Below, piece by piece: positions 4,649-29,717 of a stretch of DNA of 64,000 bases. The DNA comes from an uncultured Gammaproteobacteria bacterium (lineage in GTDB: Bacteria; Pseudomonadota; Gammaproteobacteria; GCA-002705445; GCA-002716945). Below the pieces are notes generated by a model, which was given only the letters and a program-made list of their open reading frames with translations, made no database searches and was not told where the DNA came from. Each line of letters opens with the position of its first letter. Position 1 is the stretch's first letter. The stretch lies in assembly GCA_902559355.1 (NCBI GenBank), contig CACEHM010000002.1, forward strand, positions 171,246 to 235,245, read 5' to 3'. The translations under genes and the position numbers were made by a program.

Positions 4649-5927
4649 TACAGTTAATGAATGGTTAGAATGGCAACAAACTGTCCATCCTTTAAACATT
4701 GATTTTAAACTTGAAAGAATACTTAGCGTTTATGAAAAACTTGATGTAGCTAAGGTTGCTAAGAAAGTAATTACAGTTGCCGGCACTAATGGAAAAGGGT
4801 CAACTGTTTCTTTTTTAGAGTCTATACTCTGTAAGAATAATATCAATGTTGGCACTTTCACTTCTCCTCATATATTAAAATACAATGAACGAATAAAGAT
4901 TAACGGAAAGGAAGTAGATGATGAATCGTTGTTAAATGTTTTTGAATTAATCGATCAAAGAAGAGGTAACACAACCTTAACGTATTTTGAATTTGCGACG
5001 TTAAGTGCTTTTTATTTATTTAGTAAAGCAGACCTAGATGTCGTGGTATTAGAGGTTGGTTTAGGTGGACGATTAGATGCAACTAACATTATCGATTCAG
5101 ATGTCTCTATTATTACATCCATTGGAATTGATCATACTGAATTTCTTGGAGATACCATTGACAGTATCGCTCTTGAAAAAGCAGGAGTTATGAGATCATT
5201 TAAAAAATGTATTTTTGCGCAAGAAAATCCTCCTTCTGTACTATATAAATATTCTAAAAATAGATCTGTAAATCTGCTAACCCATAACAATGATTATACT
5301 GTTAATAGATACTCAGATTCCTGGTCCATAGTTTCGAAAGCTATGGAAATACACGATATTCCGAACTTAAAAATGATCGGAGATTACCAATATAATTATG
5401 CTACAGCATCTGTAATAGCTCTAAATGATATTTTACCCGAAGCATTATCTGATCAAGAGCTCCTTAAAAATGCACTTTGTGATACTTTGATACCAGGAAG
5501 GTTTCAGTATCTTCAGCATTCACCAGATATTATTCTTGACGTAGCTCACAACGAAGATGCAGCAAGAAGTCTTGCCACGAATATAAAACGACTAGGCTAT
5601 AATAACATCCATGTTGTTTTGGGAATACTCGCAGATAAGGATGTCTATAGCATTGTAAAGCCATTTTCACATCTTGTTGATCATTGGCATATTGGGACTA
5701 TTAGTAGTGAGAGAGGTATGAATGCTGAAGAAATCAAATTTCGGATAAAGTCGTTATTCAAAAACAAATTCTCAATAGAAACATATAATTCTATTTCTGC
5801 AGCTTACCATGAAGCAGTAAAACAACAAGATGATAACACCCTAATACTAGTCTATGGTTCCTTTTATACCGTATCTGAAGCATTGCAATCAAATAGCTAT
5901 ATATTAAAAAAAGAAGATGCGATTTAG
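4620..5927 (+). CDS. folC: dihydrofolate synthase / folylpolyglutamate synthase
   Basis: Contains the P-loop [13 protein letters not shown] of the Mur ligase family. The accD-folC order is conserved. The start may instead be the Met at 4632. Confidence 0.85.
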
Positions 5928-23848: not shown

Positions 23849-24870
23849 TTATGTTAAATATTCTAGTGTCTGCATTTCATTAAGTCTACTTTTACATCTT
23901 CTCCAAAGTTCTATAAGTTTATCACCTGTATAAATATGATTATATGAGCAGTTATTAAAAAAAAATTTAATCTTTATTTTGTTTCTATAGCAAATATCTA
24001 TAAAGGATATAAACCTTCTGATAAGATCGGCTGAATCATCATTACAAATAATAAAATCATTTATAAAGATCCACTCTATGTTTTCTGACATCTCAATATA
24101 TTCTTTATCTCCTCCAGGCTCTTTGAAGAAGTCTGAAAAAGAAATCCATAAAAAATCACATGATGTTGCTTTACAACTAAAACTTCTAGAATTGATACAG
24201 TACTTTTTATTAAAAGTTAGATTTTCAAAATTATTTTTTAAAAACTTTACAATATCTTTATCATCATAATTTTGATTTACATTATCATTATACATATTAA
24301 CAATATTTCTTGATCTATAATCTACCAAGCCTTCTACTTTATATAGATTAATTGATTCTTGCATAATCTTCATCTCATTAATAAACACTTCTCTCTGTAG
24401 ACCATTTTTATATAATTCTTCTGGATGTGTATTAGAAGTTAAATACAGAGTAACATTTAATTTAATGAGCTGATTTAGTAGGCTTCCGATAATCATCGCG
24501 TCTGATATATCCTCAACTTGAAATTCATCAATAAATATAACTTTACATTTTTTACTTAAAGATCTAGCTACAATATTCAAAGGATTTTTTTTACCTGACA
24601 AGCCAGATAATTCATCATGTACGATCTGCATGAGCTCCATGTAATGGAATGATGCTTTTCTTTCTGTTAGTAAATTAATAAAAGATTTTGTAATTAAAGT
24701 TTTACCTGTTCCAACATCTCCCCATATATAGAAACCTTTCTTGGAATCTTTATTTTCTAATTTATTTGTTAAATCTTTTTCAGGTTGAATAGATTCAATC
24801 ATTTTGTGAATCAAATCTGATTGTGCTGAATCTAATTTAATCCCTCTTTTTTTTAAACTTTTTTCAATAT
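23849..24870 (-). CDS. zapE: AFG1-family ATPase (cell division protein ZapE)
   Basis: Walker A IWGDVGTGKT and Walker B VIFIDEFQVEDI. I chose the ATG at 24870 (MFEYIEKSL...). The ORF is open upstream to 24982, but only by reading through a tRNA fragment. Confidence 0.7.
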
Positions 24871-24888
24871 ACTCAAACATTTTTTTAA

Positions 24889-24940
24889 TACCACTGATCG
24901 GACTCGAACCGATACTTTCTTGCGAAAAAGGGATCTTGAG
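24889..24940 (-). pseudogene. 3' half of a split tRNA-Leu(CAA) gene: anticodon 3' stem, variable arm, T-arm, acceptor 3' strand
   Basis: The minus strand reads CTCAAGA-TCCCT-TTTTCGCAAGAAAGT-ATCGG-TTCGAGT-CCGAT-CAGTGGT-A. This gives a T-arm with a GGTTCGAGTCC loop, a GNRA-capped variable hairpin, and an acceptor 3' strand complementary to GCCACTG at 29674-29680. Confidence 0.7.
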
Positions 24941-24999
24941 TGCATTGTCTGCACCAACCCAACAGTTACAAGATTTTAACACATTTTTTAATATTTTTT

Positions 25000-25028
25000 T
25001 TACATAAGATATTCATAAGTGCTATAAT
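25000..25028 (+). promoter_or_regulatory. sigma70-like promoter (TTACAT-17 nt-TATAAT)
   Basis: -35 TTACAT at 25000-25005, a 17-nt spacer, and a perfect -10 TATAAT at 25023-25028. An AAGGAGA Shine-Dalgarno sits 7 nt before the ATG at 25097. Confidence 0.4.
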
Positions 25029-25096
25029 AGAGTCTGTCTTGATTTAGAAATTACTCTACTTGCTGGGACATTAAACAAACGCTAAAGGAGAATATA

Positions 25097-25279
25097 ATGA
25101 AATTATCTATTCAGACTATCAAAGACTATTTCAAAAGTAAAAAAGATAAAAATAAAGATCTCATCTTTTTTGAAGAAATAGGAAATCAAAAAACTTCTAA
25201 AGATGACATCATGAAAAATTTGGTCAAGATCTTAGAAAAAAAAGGTTTCAAATATATAGATACAAAATATAAAGACTAA
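25097..25279 (+). CDS. small charged hypothetical protein (60 aa), first gene of the insertion
   Basis: Strong SD (AAAGGAGA), a promoter upstream and a terminator 20 nt downstream. I recognise no homolog. Confidence 0.45.
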   Translation: MKLSIQTIKDYFKSKKDKNKDLIFFEEIGNQKTSKDDIMKNLVKILEKKGFKYIDTKYKD

Positions 25280-25510: not shown

Positions 25511-26134
25511 ATGGATAAAGAAAAAATTAAAAATAAAATCTTAGATATTGAAACCAAGTATAATTTTACCGAGGGATACAAATTGCTATATTGTCCATGG
25601 TCAACTATTGAACACTCTTCGATTGCGTTTATATCATTAAACCCTGGCAGTAAAATGCCTGATGAGGCAGATATTAGATTGTTATCTGATGAGAGAGGTA
25701 ATTCATATGAAATAGAAATGCATACTACTAAATCTCCTATTACTCATCAATTTTTAGAACTGTGCAAACTTCTCAATAAGAATCCCTCAGATATTCTTAC
25801 TGGCACAATTTGTCCATTTAGAGGTAAATCATGGACATCATTTTCTCGTGATCAGAGAAATGCAGGTCTAATGCTAGGCAAATATTTCTGGCACAAAACT
25901 CTAGATAAGATTAACTTACTCATTTGCGTTGGTAATGATGTTGCAAAAAATATGACTTCTATTTCTGATTTTAAAAAAGAGAAAATTTTTGATTCAGGTT
26001 GGGGTGATATTAAAATAACAAGATATAAAGACAGCACAGGTAAGATACTTATTCATTTACCACACCTCTCTACTTTTAAACTTTTTTCTCGAAAAGAGTG
26101 CTTACTTGTTCTAAAACAAGTTTTTAAGTTATAG
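25511..26134 (+). CDS. hypothetical protein with UDG-superfamily (uracil-DNA glycosylase fold, family 4/SMUG-like) motif pattern
   Basis: IAFISLNPGSKMPDEAD resembles UDG motif 1 (hhhhG-x-[NA]-PG followed by acidic residues). HQFLELCKLL matches the following helix. TICPFRGKSW...LLICVGNDVA resembles the V-x-C-RP..NR...hhV-LG region. The C-terminal HLPHLS resembles UDG motif 2 (HPSPL). This is a recalled pattern match, not a database hit. Confidence 0.45.
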   Translation: MDKEKIKNKILDIETKYNFTEGYKLLYCPWSTIEHSSIAFISLNPGSKMPDEADIRLLSDERGNSYEIEMHTTKSPITHQFLELCKLLNKNPSDILTGTICPFRGKSWTSFSRDQRNAGLMLGKYFWHKTLDKINLLICVGNDVAKNMTSISDFKKEKIFDSGWGDIKITRYKDSTGKILIHLPHLSTFKLFSRKECLLVLKQVFKL

Positions 26135-26149
26135 ACTATAATTTAAATA

Positions 26150-27226
26150 ATGATTGATATACATGATAAACTGCCCTCTGATCTAATTATTGGCAATGAA
26201 TATACTAAACAAGAATTAGATAAGTTGTTTAAGACATCTGAAATTGAAAACATTTATGGGGGTATTGGAAAGATAAATAATCGTTTAATCTTGCTTATCA
26301 CTCTAGACAAAACCTACACCGCAGAACTTCCTAAAAATGAGTCTGAAATGTCAAGAGAAGAGAAGGAAGAGCATAATTATCGTCATCTTGACTATTTTGA
26401 TATGGAGGAAAATATTTTCTGTTGGGATGGACCTACTAATATGAATCTTGAGAGTCCTTTAATAAAAGACTTTACCTCAAAATTATATCAATGCCTGTTG
26501 TTTGTTAGAGAGTATTATCATAAAGATGAATATGAATTTAAGAATAAAATTACTAATGATAAGTATTTTTACTGTGGGAAGATAAGATATCAAAAACATA
26601 TTGATACTAAAATTAAACATTTTATTTCAAGTTTAGAAGATGAACCTAATAAGAAACTTAATCATTTATATAAATTCATACCGACTGAATTAGATGAAAG
26701 AAAGAAAGAATTTAATATCTTAAAAGAAAAAGAGAAAAATGATTTTATTGAGTTAGTGCATCAAGAAGAATCTCGCACTCATGAAAGGAAAAGCACTTTT
26801 TCTGGAAATCCAGGCATTAAAAAAGAGTATATGGTTGAAAGTAACCTCAAAGCAGTATGCGGTTTTCTTAATGAAAGAGGTGGTAACCTTATGATTGGTA
26901 TCGAAGACGATGGGGAGGTTACTGGTATAGAGAAAGATTATAATTATAAAGACAATGATCAATTTGAGAGACATATTCTTTTTCAAATGAGAAAACTAAT
27001 GGATAAATTTGAAGTAATTGAAAAATATATTAAGTTTCAATTTGAATATGCTTCTTTAAGTGATAAAGACTCATCTAGAAAAATAGTATGTAGAATAAAT
27101 TGTAGACCATTACCTGATGATGAAGTTTCTTATGTTAACGGTAAACTTTATTTAAGAGTAGGACCCCAAACTAATGAATTAAGTGTAAAAGAGGCGTTAT
27201 CATGGTTAAAGAGAAGACAAAAGTAA
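26150..27226 (+). CDS. protein with C-terminal AlbA_2 / Schlafen-like (divergent AAA-4) domain
   Basis: EESRTHERKSTF...AVCGFLNERGGNLMIGIEDDGEVTGIEKD matches the AlbA_2 signature (E-S-x-T-x-E-[FY]-K ... A-F-x-N-x-x-GG-x-L-x-IG-V-x-D-D-G-x-V-x-G-I). I recognise no family for the N-terminal ~190 aa. Confidence 0.5.
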   Translation: MIDIHDKLPSDLIIGNEYTKQELDKLFKTSEIENIYGGIGKINNRLILLITLDKTYTAELPKNESEMSREEKEEHNYRHLDYFDMEENIFCWDGPTNMNLESPLIKDFTSKLYQCLLFVREYYHKDEYEFKNKITNDKYFYCGKIRYQKHIDTKIKHFISSLEDEPNKKLNHLYKFIPTELDERKKEFNILKEKEKNDFIELVHQEESRTHERKSTFSGNPGIKKEYMVESNLKAVCGFLNERGGNLMIGIEDDGEVTGIEKDYNYKDNDQFERHILFQMRKLMDKFEVIEKYIKFQFEYASLSDKDSSRKIVCRINCRPLPDDEVSYVNGKLYLRVGPQTNELSVKEALSWLKRRQK

Positions 27227-27636
27227 AGATATACCAAGGTGGTTCAACAGGTTTAGTTCAACAAAATAAACGCATGATTATGAAGTCTTCTCACACCAAA
27301 GGTGATGTAGGGATTCAAAGACAATTAAAAGATATGTTAAAAGCGAAATTTTCTTTTCATATAGTAATTATGCACTTTGGTGATTTTTTCAGGATAATCG
27401 AAGAGGACGCAGAGTTTTTTAATAAAGAATTTAATTTTAAACTTTCACAACCAGGACGATACACTTTCGTTACAACTGCGTTCCCTCTAAATAGTAGGCA
27501 AAAATATATAGATAAACTTACTGATATGGAAAAACAATTTTGTCTTCTAGATCAATATAAAGTTGACGGTACAGAGGAATTTTATAGGAAGGTAAACATA
27601 TCAACAAATAAAGATGCACTAGGGTTCTGGTACTAA
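27202..27636 (+). CDS. stand-alone MutS domain I (mismatch-recognition domain)-like protein
   Basis: [45 protein letters not shown] parallels E. coli MutS [71 protein letters not shown] parallels [28 protein letters not shown]. The GDF-Y-E Glu is Arg here (GDFFR). The gene overlaps the upstream ORF by 25 nt; an alternative start is the Met at 27274. Confidence 0.5.
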   Translation: [144 protein letters not shown]

Positions 27637-27656
27637 ATAAGAGAAGTCTCTAGTTC

Positions 27657-28352
27657 ATGATTGATATAACTTTTGATATGTTCTCGGATACTCCTGAAGG
27701 AAAAGATCCAGATACATGGAGTCCAACGTTAAGAAAGTACCATCAAATTTTATGGAATAAACGATTACCCAATGGAACTATGTTTAGTCTTGATCTTGAG
27801 ACAAGACAGTTATTACATCACAGATCTCAATTAGGAGAATTTTATTTATCAAGTGATTGTATAGGTCATACATACAGTCGTACTAAAAGTATTTCTGATA
27901 TAGTCAATCAGATTCCCTTAAGTGAAATAGATTCGTTTTATAAACTATGTAGCACAATAGGTTCTTATATCATATATCCTTGCAAAAGAATTGATAATAA
28001 GATGACATTTAATGGTGCTCGAGGTACTAATCGCAAGATAAAAGATAGATTCGACCTAACATTAGAATGTATTCGATTGTTTTATCAAAATGAAAAAAGT
28101 CCACTTAGTGAGACTATAGAAAGATATAAATCATATTTTAAACTATTTGATAACTTTCAAGGTTATGTTGATTTCTTTTTACTTCAAGATTTAGTATCAA
28201 GTGATTATTCGTCTATTAAATATCTTATACCTTTTAAAGATTTCGATAGTCCAGCACTACCATGCAACGTAGAAGAATATATTACTTATAAAGATAATAC
28301 GACAAAATTTATTTCACAAAGAAATGAAAGAATATTAAAATCAATACAATGA
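27657..28352 (+). CDS. hypothetical protein (orphan, 231 aa)
   Basis: Tightly linked to its neighbours (ATGA overlap with the next gene). I recognise no motif. Conserved-looking stretch: DPDTWSPTLRKYHQILWNKRLPNG. Confidence 0.5.
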   Translation: MIDITFDMFSDTPEGKDPDTWSPTLRKYHQILWNKRLPNGTMFSLDLETRQLLHHRSQLGEFYLSSDCIGHTYSRTKSISDIVNQIPLSEIDSFYKLCSTIGSYIIYPCKRIDNKMTFNGARGTNRKIKDRFDLTLECIRLFYQNEKSPLSETIERYKSYFKLFDNFQGYVDFFLLQDLVSSDYSSIKYLIPFKDFDSPALPCNVEEYITYKDNTTKFISQRNERILKSIQ

Positions 28353-29419
28353 GTAAATTTAAACCTATCTTATACGACGAACTATTTAAATTAATAACAC
28401 TTGGTGATGATGAAGAATGGGAAAAATTTTCTTCAGAGTACGAACATGTCTTTACACCAGGGTTTTTCTCACAACTTTCTGACACCGAAATTTATGAACT
28501 ATTTAATCATTATCAATTTTTATCCATTGAATATTGGAATATTTATTCTTCTTCATTAATTAACTCAGAGAATAATAAAATTAGATCCAATCAACTTCTA
28601 AAAAAATATCGTGAAATATGGGAAGGAAAAACACATAATAAAAATAGCACAGTCACTCCTGGAATTAACGAAAGAAAAATTAAAGAAATTGATGATTTTG
28701 AATTTGCAATTAATTATCCAGTCGAGGAAATATTAGATCCATCATTAAGCGCCGCAGGACCACATTTCTCAGAGATTGTATTTTGTTCAATACTTTATAG
28801 TTTTTTTGAGGAAATACTAACAACCTTCGTATTTAATGTATCTGGAAGTAAGTGTTTTTTTAATAATATAAAATATAAAGATCATTACTTCTATAAAACA
28901 AATAGATATACAGACTTGTATAAAGATTATATGAAACATTCAATCAAAGAACCAAAGAGAAAAGACTATAAGAATTTAGATGATTTTTATTCGGAAAGAT
29001 TAAGATATAGAAACATTACTAAAAAAAGTCTTCCTGAAATTAAAAACAATGAATGGTTAGAGTTTTATAGAAATAATAAGGGTATTGATGGTCGAGAAGT
29101 CCCTGATTACATTATTAAAGCAAAATATATAGATCAAAGATGTGACAGTACATTATATTCTGACTTAATATCACAGAGTAGATTTAAAGAATTCAAAATT
29201 AAAAGGAACAATGTGATGCATGCAAAATCAAATGAATCTAATATATCAACTCTTGCATGTTTTGATATTATAACTGATTTGCTTAACTTCTTAATTAATG
29301 ATAAGAATATTATCAATCAATATTCTAGTTGTATAAGTCAAAACAGTCTAAGATTTGATATTGATAAATTAGATGACGATGATGCTATTTGGGTATTTCA
29401 ATCTGAGATGACTTATTAA
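28349..29419 (+). CDS. hypothetical protein with C-terminal HEPN/Abi_2-like R-x4-H motif (candidate RNase effector)
   Basis: The C-terminal FKIKRNNVMHAKSNESNISTLACFDII contains an R-N-x-x-x-H motif typical of HEPN abortive-infection proteins. Size and composition are compatible with AbiD/AbiF-like proteins. Weak. Confidence 0.35.
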   Translation: MSKFKPILYDELFKLITLGDDEEWEKFSSEYEHVFTPGFFSQLSDTEIYELFNHYQFLSIEYWNIYSSSLINSENNKIRSNQLLKKYREIWEGKTHNKNSTVTPGINERKIKEIDDFEFAINYPVEEILDPSLSAAGPHFSEIVFCSILYSFFEEILTTFVFNVSGSKCFFNNIKYKDHYFYKTNRYTDLYKDYMKHSIKEPKRKDYKNLDDFYSERLRYRNITKKSLPEIKNNEWLEFYRNNKGIDGREVPDYIIKAKYIDQRCDSTLYSDLISQSRFKEFKIKRNNVMHAKSNESNISTLACFDIITDLLNFLINDKNIINQYSSCISQNSLRFDIDKLDDDDAIWVFQSEMTY

Positions 29420-29425
29420 TATTTA

Positions 29426-29509
29426 TAGCGATAGACAGACTCGAACTGTCACTCTGTTGCCAGAATCGGATTTTGAGTCCGACGCGTCTACCAATTCCGC
29501 CATATCGCC
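29426..29509 (-). tRNA. tRNA-Leu (anticodon CAA), class II with long variable arm
   Basis: Cloverleaf read manually on the minus strand: acceptor GGCGATA/TATCGCT (G1-U72), D-arm GCG-GAATTGGTAGA-CGC, anticodon arm TCGGA-CTCAAAA-TCCGA, variable hairpin TCTG-GCAA-CAGA, T-arm GACAG-TTCGAGT-CTGTC, discriminator A, and no encoded CCA. Confidence 0.85.
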
Positions 29510-29640
29510 ATGAGTAATTTATTCTATCAAAAACACAAACACTTTGGAAAGGTGTATGTACGGATAAATGTTTGTGCAATGTTTGTGACTAAAATTTACA
29601 AATTATAAGCATTACCAAGGCATCTGATGCATCCGTCTTC

Positions 29641-29680
29641 GTTTTGAGTCCCTCGTGTCTACCAATTCCACCACAGTGGC
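29641..29680 (-). pseudogene. 5' half of the split tRNA-Leu(CAA): acceptor 5' strand, D-arm, anticodon 5' stem and loop
   Basis: The minus strand reads GCCACTG-TG-GTG-GAATTGGTAGA-CAC-G-AGGGA-CTCAAAA, then diverges into GAAGACGG... with no anticodon 3' stem or T-arm. AGGGA pairs with TCCCT in the fragment at 24929-24933. Confidence 0.65.
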
Positions 29681-29717
29681 ATAATATTATTTATTTATGT
29701 GTTATCATTACAGAATA

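Follow-up and report, generated by a model that had tools for sequence, protein, structure and literature searches.

The stretch of DNA analysed here in its full length of 64,000 nucleotides (nt), referred to below as the window, belongs to an uncultured Gammaproteobacteria bacterium (GenBank assembly GCA_902559355.1, contig CACEHM010000002.1, positions 171,246 to 235,245). Within a variable, tRNA-linked island it carries a gene for a protein of 358 amino acids (aa) that consists of a divergent DUF3427/SRA-like domain, predicted to read modified DNA, followed by a linker helix and a Schlafen (AlbA_2) nuclease domain. Enzymes of the Schlafen family cut tRNA in viral infection, in humans and in bacteria. 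The gene and the parts of its product are the following:

26150-27226, + strand: complete reader-Schlafen gene, 358 aa plus stop, a single ATG-started open reading frame (ORF; ORF listing, full-length homologues, alignments A1 and A5)
26177-26683, + strand: divergent DUF3427/SRA-like beta-barrel domain, predicted modified-base reader (residues ~10-178)
26318-26377, + strand: clade-specific insertion of ~17 aa, AELPKNESEMSREEKEEHN (residues ~57-76, alignment A4)
26690-26764, + strand: long linker helix between the domains (residues ~181-205; DSSP on both models)
26765-27223, + strand: single-lobe Schlafen/AlbA_2 nuclease domain (residues 206-358)
26768-26791, + strand: Ex4ExK catalytic motif ESRTHERK with E207, E212 and K214 (residues 207-214; alignments A1 and A5)
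26906-26908, + strand: D253 in GGNLMIGIEDDG, candidate third carboxylate equivalent to rSlfn13 D248 and SLFN5 D233 (alignments A1 and A5)

The N-terminal domain, a predicted reader

When the libraries are scanned directly, residues 1-200 match no Pfam, NCBIfam, PHROGs or PADLOC family at E<=1. A profile built from residues 1-203 of nine family members and searched against 1.84 billion representative proteins retrieves 49 proteins at E<=0.001, 19 of them at E<=1e-10, and reaches canonical DUF3427 proteins with E-values down to 4e-19 (1.84e9 sequences). Forty-three of the retrieved proteins were aligned with the protein under study and all 44 sequences were scanned one by one with Pfam: 38 match PF11907 (DUF3427), the best with an E of 1.2e-19. 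The other domains in this set are NOV_C/DUF3883 of the PD-(D/E)XK type (14), HNH_2 (7) and AlbA_2 (6), besides single cases of a GIY-YIG-like T5orf172/MUG113 domain, of HNH and of SRA. Within the Schlafen-fused clade, PF11907 and PF04326 stand side by side in the precomputed annotation of one member (P0012), and another (P0013) matches PF11907 at E 0.007.

The blocks LFxTLDK, YxDYF, FxWD(S/G), LFxR and YCG are common to the trimmed alignment. Members of the Schlafen-fused clade (rows 1-13 of alignment A4) depart from canonical DUF3427 domains through the ~17-aa insertion, which is found in this clade only and sits directly before the conserved YxxxDYFD...FxWD block, and through WDGP where the canonical domains have WDSQ. 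It is because of these two deviations that Pfam misses members of the clade.

AlphaFold2 models residues 1-203 confidently from a 36-sequence alignment (pLDDT 90.4, pTM 0.86), and the domain has an SRA-type fold. The same fold is found in the C-terminal target recognition domain (TRD) of SauUSI, an ATP-dependent type IV enzyme of S. aureus (PDB 7CLG); this TRD is a DUF3427 domain and the source of the preference for 5-methylcytosine (5mC) over cytosine (PMC7913695). It has been modelled with the base flipped into a pocket of Y831, F841, I842 and W868, where D858 reads it (PMC7913695). D81, F83, F90 and W92 are >=90 % conserved across the family alignment, and the spacing from D81 to W92 (11) is near that from D858 to W868 (10). 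PDB sequence-profile searches with the N-terminal alignments gave chance matches only and did not reach SauUSI. The clade-specific insertion may lie near the loop that contacts the base in SauUSI. On the strength of the profile search and the predicted structure, the N-terminal half is a divergent DUF3427/SRA-like domain, a predicted reader of modified DNA.

The C-terminal domain, a probable nuclease

The initial annotation had described the ORF at 26150-27226 as an AlbA_2/Schlafen protein, quoting a peptide that lies at residues 206-263, and a Pfam hmmscan confirms it: SLFN_AlbA_2 (PF04326) is matched well beyond chance (E 5.1e-14; 53.3 bits versus a gathering cut-off of 25.3) from residue 207 to 344, equivalent to profile positions 1-117 of 118. 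This is the only C-terminal family matched, and no recognised DNase class (HNH, PD-(D/E)XK, PLD or GIY-YIG) is seen there. The domain has the Schlafen-lobe fold, and its structural matches are Schlafen/SAMD9.

An Ex4(E/D)xK motif is common to prokaryotic Schlafen domains, 97 % of which are fused to further domains thought to be sensors, and 70 % of the prokaryotic Schlafen genes are located <=10 kb from known defence genes (PMC13056530). The carboxylate triad of Schlafens is E205/E210/D248 in rSlfn13 and E191/E196/D233 in SLFN5 (PMC8789055). The HMMER alignment places SLFN5 D233 opposite D252/D253, with an uncertainty of one residue in the register. E207, E212, K214 and D253 are invariant in 11 sequences, the most distant of them 29 % identical, and in the alignment that reaches this distance N241, G244, G245 and R336 are invariant as well. 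Since both the Ex4ExK motif and the third acidic residue are conserved, the domain is probably an active nuclease, more than a nucleic-acid-binding module. The Pfam scan shows no helix-turn-helix (HTH) or other regulatory output domain in the 358-aa protein.

The identity of both domains can be stated with great confidence. The initial annotation had called the N-terminal half unassigned, which holds for direct library scans and ceases to hold once a profile search and structure prediction are used; its guess that this half might be the sensor fits the DUF3427/SRA-like assignment, and the region is not a housekeeping domain. As for the C-terminal half, the annotation recognised the domain correctly but took it for a nucleic-acid-binding module, a description that is too narrow given the retained Ex4ExK motif and third acidic residue, and the label "divergent AAA" that it attached is outdated.

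Domain architecture and known systems

The architecture is equivalent to that of DUF3427-DNase fusions, with a Schlafen nuclease in the position of the DNase. As in reader-DNase type IV fusions, the reader is N-terminal to the nuclease domain within one polypeptide, and the C-terminal place that PD-(D/E)XK, HNH_2 or GIY-YIG-like domains occupy in relatives of the same reader is taken here by Schlafen. The DUF3427-PD-(D/E)XK fusions McaZI, BwiMMI and EfaL9I bind DNA containing 5mC or 5-hydroxymethylcytosine (5hmC) and restrict T4gt in vivo; fusions of this kind tend toward defence islands, and their order in the screen that described them was invariably reader at the N-terminus, nuclease at the C-terminus (Lutz et al. 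2019, PMC6765204). The protein under study resembles this group in its homologous N-terminal DUF3427, its reader-then-nuclease order, its similar size, its single-gene organisation and the defence-island setting of its homologues. However, the C-terminus of the group is PD-(D/E)XK (DUF3883/NOV_C) instead of Schlafen/AlbA_2, and the reader here, with its ~17-aa insertion and WDGP for WDSQ, falls below the Pfam threshold for DUF3427. The difference from SauUSI lies in the whole design: SauUSI is a translocating DNase of 953 aa built from a PLD nuclease, an SF2 ATPase and the TRD, whereas the protein described here lacks both ATPase and PLD domain and has its reader at the N-terminus.

On the Schlafen side, all three characterised prokaryotic enzymes (RorSlfn5, CbCash and RzAgo) are trigger-activated tRNases that need a change of oligomeric state. 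RorSlfn5, of the pSlfn type (Nat Microbiol 2026, PMC13056530), is likewise a single-lobe Schlafen with an Ex4(E/D)xK motif, fused to a putative sensor, and the pSlfn family is associated with defence islands; in the model put forward for RorSlfn5, binding of the trigger leads to oligomerisation and then to cleavage of tRNA. Its sensor is a C-terminal Ig-like domain for the T5 tail-assembly chaperone, i.e., for a protein trigger, in contrast to the N-terminal SRA-like reader found here. In CbCash (Csx15-Schlafen, associated with type III CRISPR) and RzAgo (SLFN-pAgo), a Schlafen tRNase similarly stays inactive until a sensor detects the infection, and activation proceeds through reorganisation of the oligomer. 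Their triggers are cA4 and guide-dependent target DNA, respectively, and both work within larger systems, whereas the present protein of 358 aa is stand-alone. Combinations of Schlafen with modules typical of type IV restriction also exist: EcoSlfn7 (DUF262-Slfn) protects against several phages, and AlbA_2 is known as a C-terminal addition in DUF1524/GmrSD proteins. In these cases, however, the partner is a DUF262 ParB-like NTPase and not an SRA-like reader.

Sensor-Schlafen fusions and DUF3427-nuclease fusions are thus each known, and we found no description of a DUF3427/SRA-Schlafen fusion. In the searchable literature on DUF3427 there is no paper on Schlafens, and the main text of two surveys of prokaryotic Schlafens (one of them PMC13056530) makes no mention of an SRA/DUF3427 fusion.

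Distribution of the family

The reader-Schlafen family is very rare. A search of 5.8 billion proteins yields ten relatives only, all full-length, 49-96 % identical and from marine metagenomes, and both halves of the protein are conserved in their alignment (A1). Proteins with both domains form about six clusters at 50 % identity among the 1.84 billion representatives, nearly all from marine metagenomes; a scan of JGI metagenomes gives five full-length relatives, and the 185,579 species-representative genomes of GTDB contain a single partial match, in a metagenome-assembled genome of the Gammaproteobacteria. No identical copy of the 358-aa protein was found in the contig index. A phage origin of the gene was considered and rejected: tblastn against 50,697 phage records gave no match, and in IMG/VR no viral contig has the whole architecture, the matches there being limited to the generic GGxLxIGVxD core.

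Mean pairwise identities of the two domains are similar (43 % and 40 %), and their comparison gives no sign of a sensor evolving faster than the nuclease. Nothing could be learnt from a scan for promoters and terminators (26 promoter-like sites versus 29.8 expected). In routine annotation, proteins of this family appear as "AlbA_2 domain protein" and nothing more.

The tRNA-linked island and the neighbouring genes

The gene lies between tRNA-derived sequences, among small genes packed on the same strand. The surrounding features of the window, with their counterparts in the other loci compared, are these:

24882-24998, - strand: pseudo-tRNA-Leu(CAA)-like element, left edge of the island (blastn, alignment A6); related pseudo-tRNA copies at 1-46 and 2405-2518 of L016 and at 5082-5133 and 5855-5912 of L017
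25511-26134, + strand: gene of a 207-aa protein; also L010 1-246, L017 7191-7814 and L096 5381-6004
27202-27636, + strand: MutS-domain-I protein, 144 aa; MutS-domain-I-only proteins elsewhere at L016 2522-2938 and L017 5289-5843
27657-28352, + strand: DUF6994 gene, 231 aa, Pfam E 3e-90; also L013 1211-1903, L096 6001-6693, and 6001-6693 of both L097 and L098
28349-29419, + strand: 356-aa ORF, 4-nt overlap with the stop of DUF6994; tRNA-proximal end of the island
29425-29510, - strand: intact tRNA-Leu(CAA), right edge of the island, with the 3' end pointing towards the cassettes (ARAGORN; Rfam tRNA 60.1 bits)
29642-29682, - strand: 41-nt copy of the tRNA-Leu 5' half, a lone half

The 3' half of the pseudo-tRNA at the left edge has copies of ~97 % identity set between the cassettes of L016 (two) and of L017. 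ARAGORN calls the second of the L016 copies a tRNA, whereas the element at 24882-24998 is not called. The lone 5' half at 29642-29682 has an acceptor strand, GCCACTG, complementary to CAGTGGT of the pseudo-tRNA, which looks as though a single ancestral tRNA had come apart. L096, a syntenic locus (pyrF ... queA), has the same tRNA-Leu(CAA) at the corresponding position. The ORF listing and the Pfam scan show no integrase in the island. Successive integrations at a tRNA gene have been described for marine genomic islands and tycheposons (bioRxiv 10.1101/2020.12.28.424599), and the pattern seen here fits this model of tRNA-seeded, additive and flexible islands.

An ORF for an AFG1/ZapE-like ATPase (23849-24982, - strand) is listed with a GTG start that is probably ~34 codons too far upstream, since the extension overlaps the pseudo-tRNA, the Pfam match starts at residue 49 and an ATG (MFEYIEK) is available near 24880. 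The syntenic L096 has no ZapE gene at that position, only an ORF of 50 aa.

Gene orders around the reader-Schlafen gene ("seg" stands for a pseudo-tRNA segment, percentages for identity of the Schlafen protein) compare as follows:

Window: seg, 60 aa, 207 aa, Schlafen, MutS-domain-I protein (144 aa), DUF6994 (231 aa), 356 aa, tRNA-Leu(CAA)
L010 (96 %): 207 aa, Schlafen, PDC-S18
L016 (97 %): seg, Schlafen, DUF2130, seg, MutS_I
L017 (73 %): type I HsdR, HNH, pseudo-tRNA, MutS_I-like, seg, Schlafen, 207 aa
P0009 locus (~50 %): Schlafen alone on its own strand, beside PbeA/PbeC and a Dam-like methyltransferase
P0005, P0004 and P0013 loci (lower identity): other neighbours again
P0012 locus (37 %): Schlafen, then directly a DUF6994 gene 71-74 % identical to the one in the window

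Only the reader-Schlafen gene is common to these loci. Its neighbours change even in relatives 96-97 % identical and are altogether different in more remote relatives, so that the gene behaves as an independent cassette and not as part of a fixed operon; the neighbours are shuffled single-gene modules in one hotspot. The "cassette" of which the initial annotation spoke is therefore not a conserved system, and a five-gene unit acting as one can largely be rejected. The sole recurrence that hints at a partnership is the pairing of P0012 with DUF6994.

Several homologues adjoin defence genes. PDC-S18, a candidate defence gene (E 1.8e-85), is next to P0001; a type I HsdR and an HNH protein are next to the homologue in L017; and PbeA (E 1.9e-141), PbeC and a methyltransferase are next to P0009. 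The last of these regions (L001 1766-9767) is an apparent Pbe-type system in its own right: besides PbeA, a PLD-SNF2 helicase, and PbeC (E 2e-20), it includes a type II methyltransferase of the Dam-like kind and three genes lacking annotation (459, 219 and 126 aa). The system is placed between the Schlafen gene and a dCMP deaminase gene, which the Schlafen gene abuts directly in L005; this is therefore a second variable hotspot. A regular-expression search of all ORFs >=120 aa in the window detects no C5 or N6/N4 methyltransferase motifs.

As to the individual neighbours, searches of Pfam, NCBIfam, PADLOC and the PDB sequences find nothing for the 207-aa protein; it is 84-89 % conserved at four loci and, where it accompanies the Schlafen gene, may precede or follow it. 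The motifs ISLNPG and HLPHLS in its sequence are vaguely reminiscent of the uracil-DNA glycosylase superfamily. Stand-alone proteins made of MutS domain I, the mismatch-recognition domain, recur in the islands (Pfam E 1e-7, 3e-6 and 2e-3), each adjoining a pseudo-tRNA element or a Schlafen gene; we know of no described role for them. The 356-aa ORF is an orphan: none of the libraries matches it, and tblastn finds no relative in 95 loci. Two sub-threshold Rfam candidates are most likely due to chance in AT-rich sequence, namely a c-di-GMP-I riboswitch at 27130-27213 (+ strand) inside the 3' end of the Schlafen gene (24.6 bits versus a gathering score of 35, E 0.11) and SAM_alpha at 25026-25101 (+ strand; 19.6 bits versus 36).

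Proposed mechanism and alternatives

A role of the reader-Schlafen protein in defence is likely. The single polypeptide would combine a sensor, the DUF3427/SRA-like domain, with an effector, the single-lobe Schlafen. By analogy with SauUSI and the McaZI group, the reader would bind DNA carrying a modified base, most likely a 5-substituted cytosine (5mC, 5hmC or a bulkier phage derivative). Several copies settling on densely modified invading DNA would bring their Schlafen domains together; since single-lobe prokaryotic Schlafens are active only after dimerisation or oligomerisation, such DNA-templated assembly would be the likeliest mode of activation. The active enzyme would then cut what is presumably tRNA, and the ensuing stop of translation would result in abortive infection or growth arrest. 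As a whole, this chain from the sensing of modified phage DNA to tRNA cleavage, drawn by analogy, is the most likely of the mechanisms considered, plausible while falling somewhat short of probable.

A number of points weigh against it. The 358-aa protein itself does not reach PF11907 in Pfam even at E<=1. WDGP and the insertion near the presumed pocket suggest that the ligand may differ from 5mC and 5hmC, or that binding may have been lost, and since sequence gives no alignment of the profile with SauUSI, the residues that contact the base have no assigned counterparts here. The DUF3427-PD-(D/E)XK proteins have shown little nuclease activity in vitro (PMC6765204). Nor does an intact triad guarantee activity, since human SLFN5 retains it and does not cleave tRNA (PMC8789055). 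The cassette proteins that neighbour the gene in the window have no PADLOC match. Finally, a Schlafen domain in the position of DNases could equally point to cleavage of DNA.

This last point leads to the main rival, a classical type IV restriction enzyme in which the Schlafen-fold domain would directly cut the modified DNA to which the SRA-like domain is bound. It would follow the order of domains in the reader-DNase fusions; however, in the literature consulted every Schlafen-fold nuclease with a reported substrate cleaves RNA (tRNA or rRNA) and the SLFN5 core showed no DNase activity (PMC8789055), which makes direct restriction unlikely.

Another possibility is that the gene is one part of a larger system, together with DUF6994 and perhaps also the MutS-domain-I or the 207-aa protein, the reader-Schlafen protein sensing and DUF6994 executing, or the other way round. 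The five ORFs from 25511 to 29419 are indeed tightly packed on one strand with ends that overlap or nearly abut, the 207-aa gene accompanies the Schlafen gene here, in L010 and in L017, and the DUF6994 gene behind P0012 overlaps it by 14 nt. Moreover, the Pfam paper (PMC11701544) predicts for DUF6994 a relationship to type IV restriction endonucleases and HNH, with an HNH-like fold that lacks the catalytic His. Yet the relatives 96-97 % identical have PDC-S18 or DUF2130 downstream instead, P0004, P0005, P0009 and P0013 have none of these neighbours, and the order is shuffled in L017. DUF6994 also has at least 4,936 homologues, compared with roughly 15 for the reader-Schlafen fusion. As a rule its gene overlaps by 4-14 nt the stop of the gene upstream, which varies (207-aa, 283-aa or reader-Schlafen), and it can also come straight after a tRNA, tRNA-Ser(gga); in the syntenic L096, where the Schlafen gene is absent, there is translational coupling between the 207-aa gene and DUF6994. 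DUF6994 may thus be a conserved effector with interchangeable partners, or a common island cassette, and a fixed multi-gene system is improbable.

Least credible is a non-defence protein, a reader or regulator at DNA or chromatin that recognises epigenetic marks of the host or DNA lesions, is possibly linked to the MutS-domain-I protein and has an AlbA_2 domain that would do no more than bind nucleic acid. In its favour, annotations of bacterial AlbA_2 proteins often speak of regulators, ~30 % of the Schlafen genes of prokaryotes lie away from known defence genes (PMC13056530), the neighbours in the window draw a blank in PADLOC and a mismatch-recognition domain is encoded next door. The strict conservation of the catalytic motif and D253, the patchy and very rare occurrence (one match in 185,579 species representatives), the setting in a variable, tRNA-linked island whose genes differ from genome to genome, the lack of an HTH or other output domain and the defence genes adjoining homologues make this very improbable.

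Implications

Prokaryotic Schlafens were shown to be phage-defence tRNases only in 2025-2026, and the triggers known for them are a phage protein, cA4 and guide-matched DNA. For the protein described here the class of ligand can be predicted, namely modified DNA. The protein also brings together modification-dependent restriction and tRNA-targeting abortive infection, so far separate fields of study. Should the Schlafen domain cut DNA instead, this would be a new class of substrate for the fold. A reader-nuclease as compact as 358 aa is also a possible reagent for the detection of DNA modifications.

The clade-specific insertion could set the specificity for an uncharacterised modification of marine phages. 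A tentative extension of the mechanism preferred above, and one that we hold to be somewhat less probable than that mechanism, is a defence logic not described before, in which type IV-style sensing is coupled to Schlafen in such a way that hypermodified phage DNA serves as a scaffold on which Schlafen lobes form active dimers or oligomers, and tRNA is cleaved and translation arrested in place of a cut in the invading DNA. If true, the modification of phage DNA, an escape from restriction, would become the alarm for an abortive-infection tRNase.

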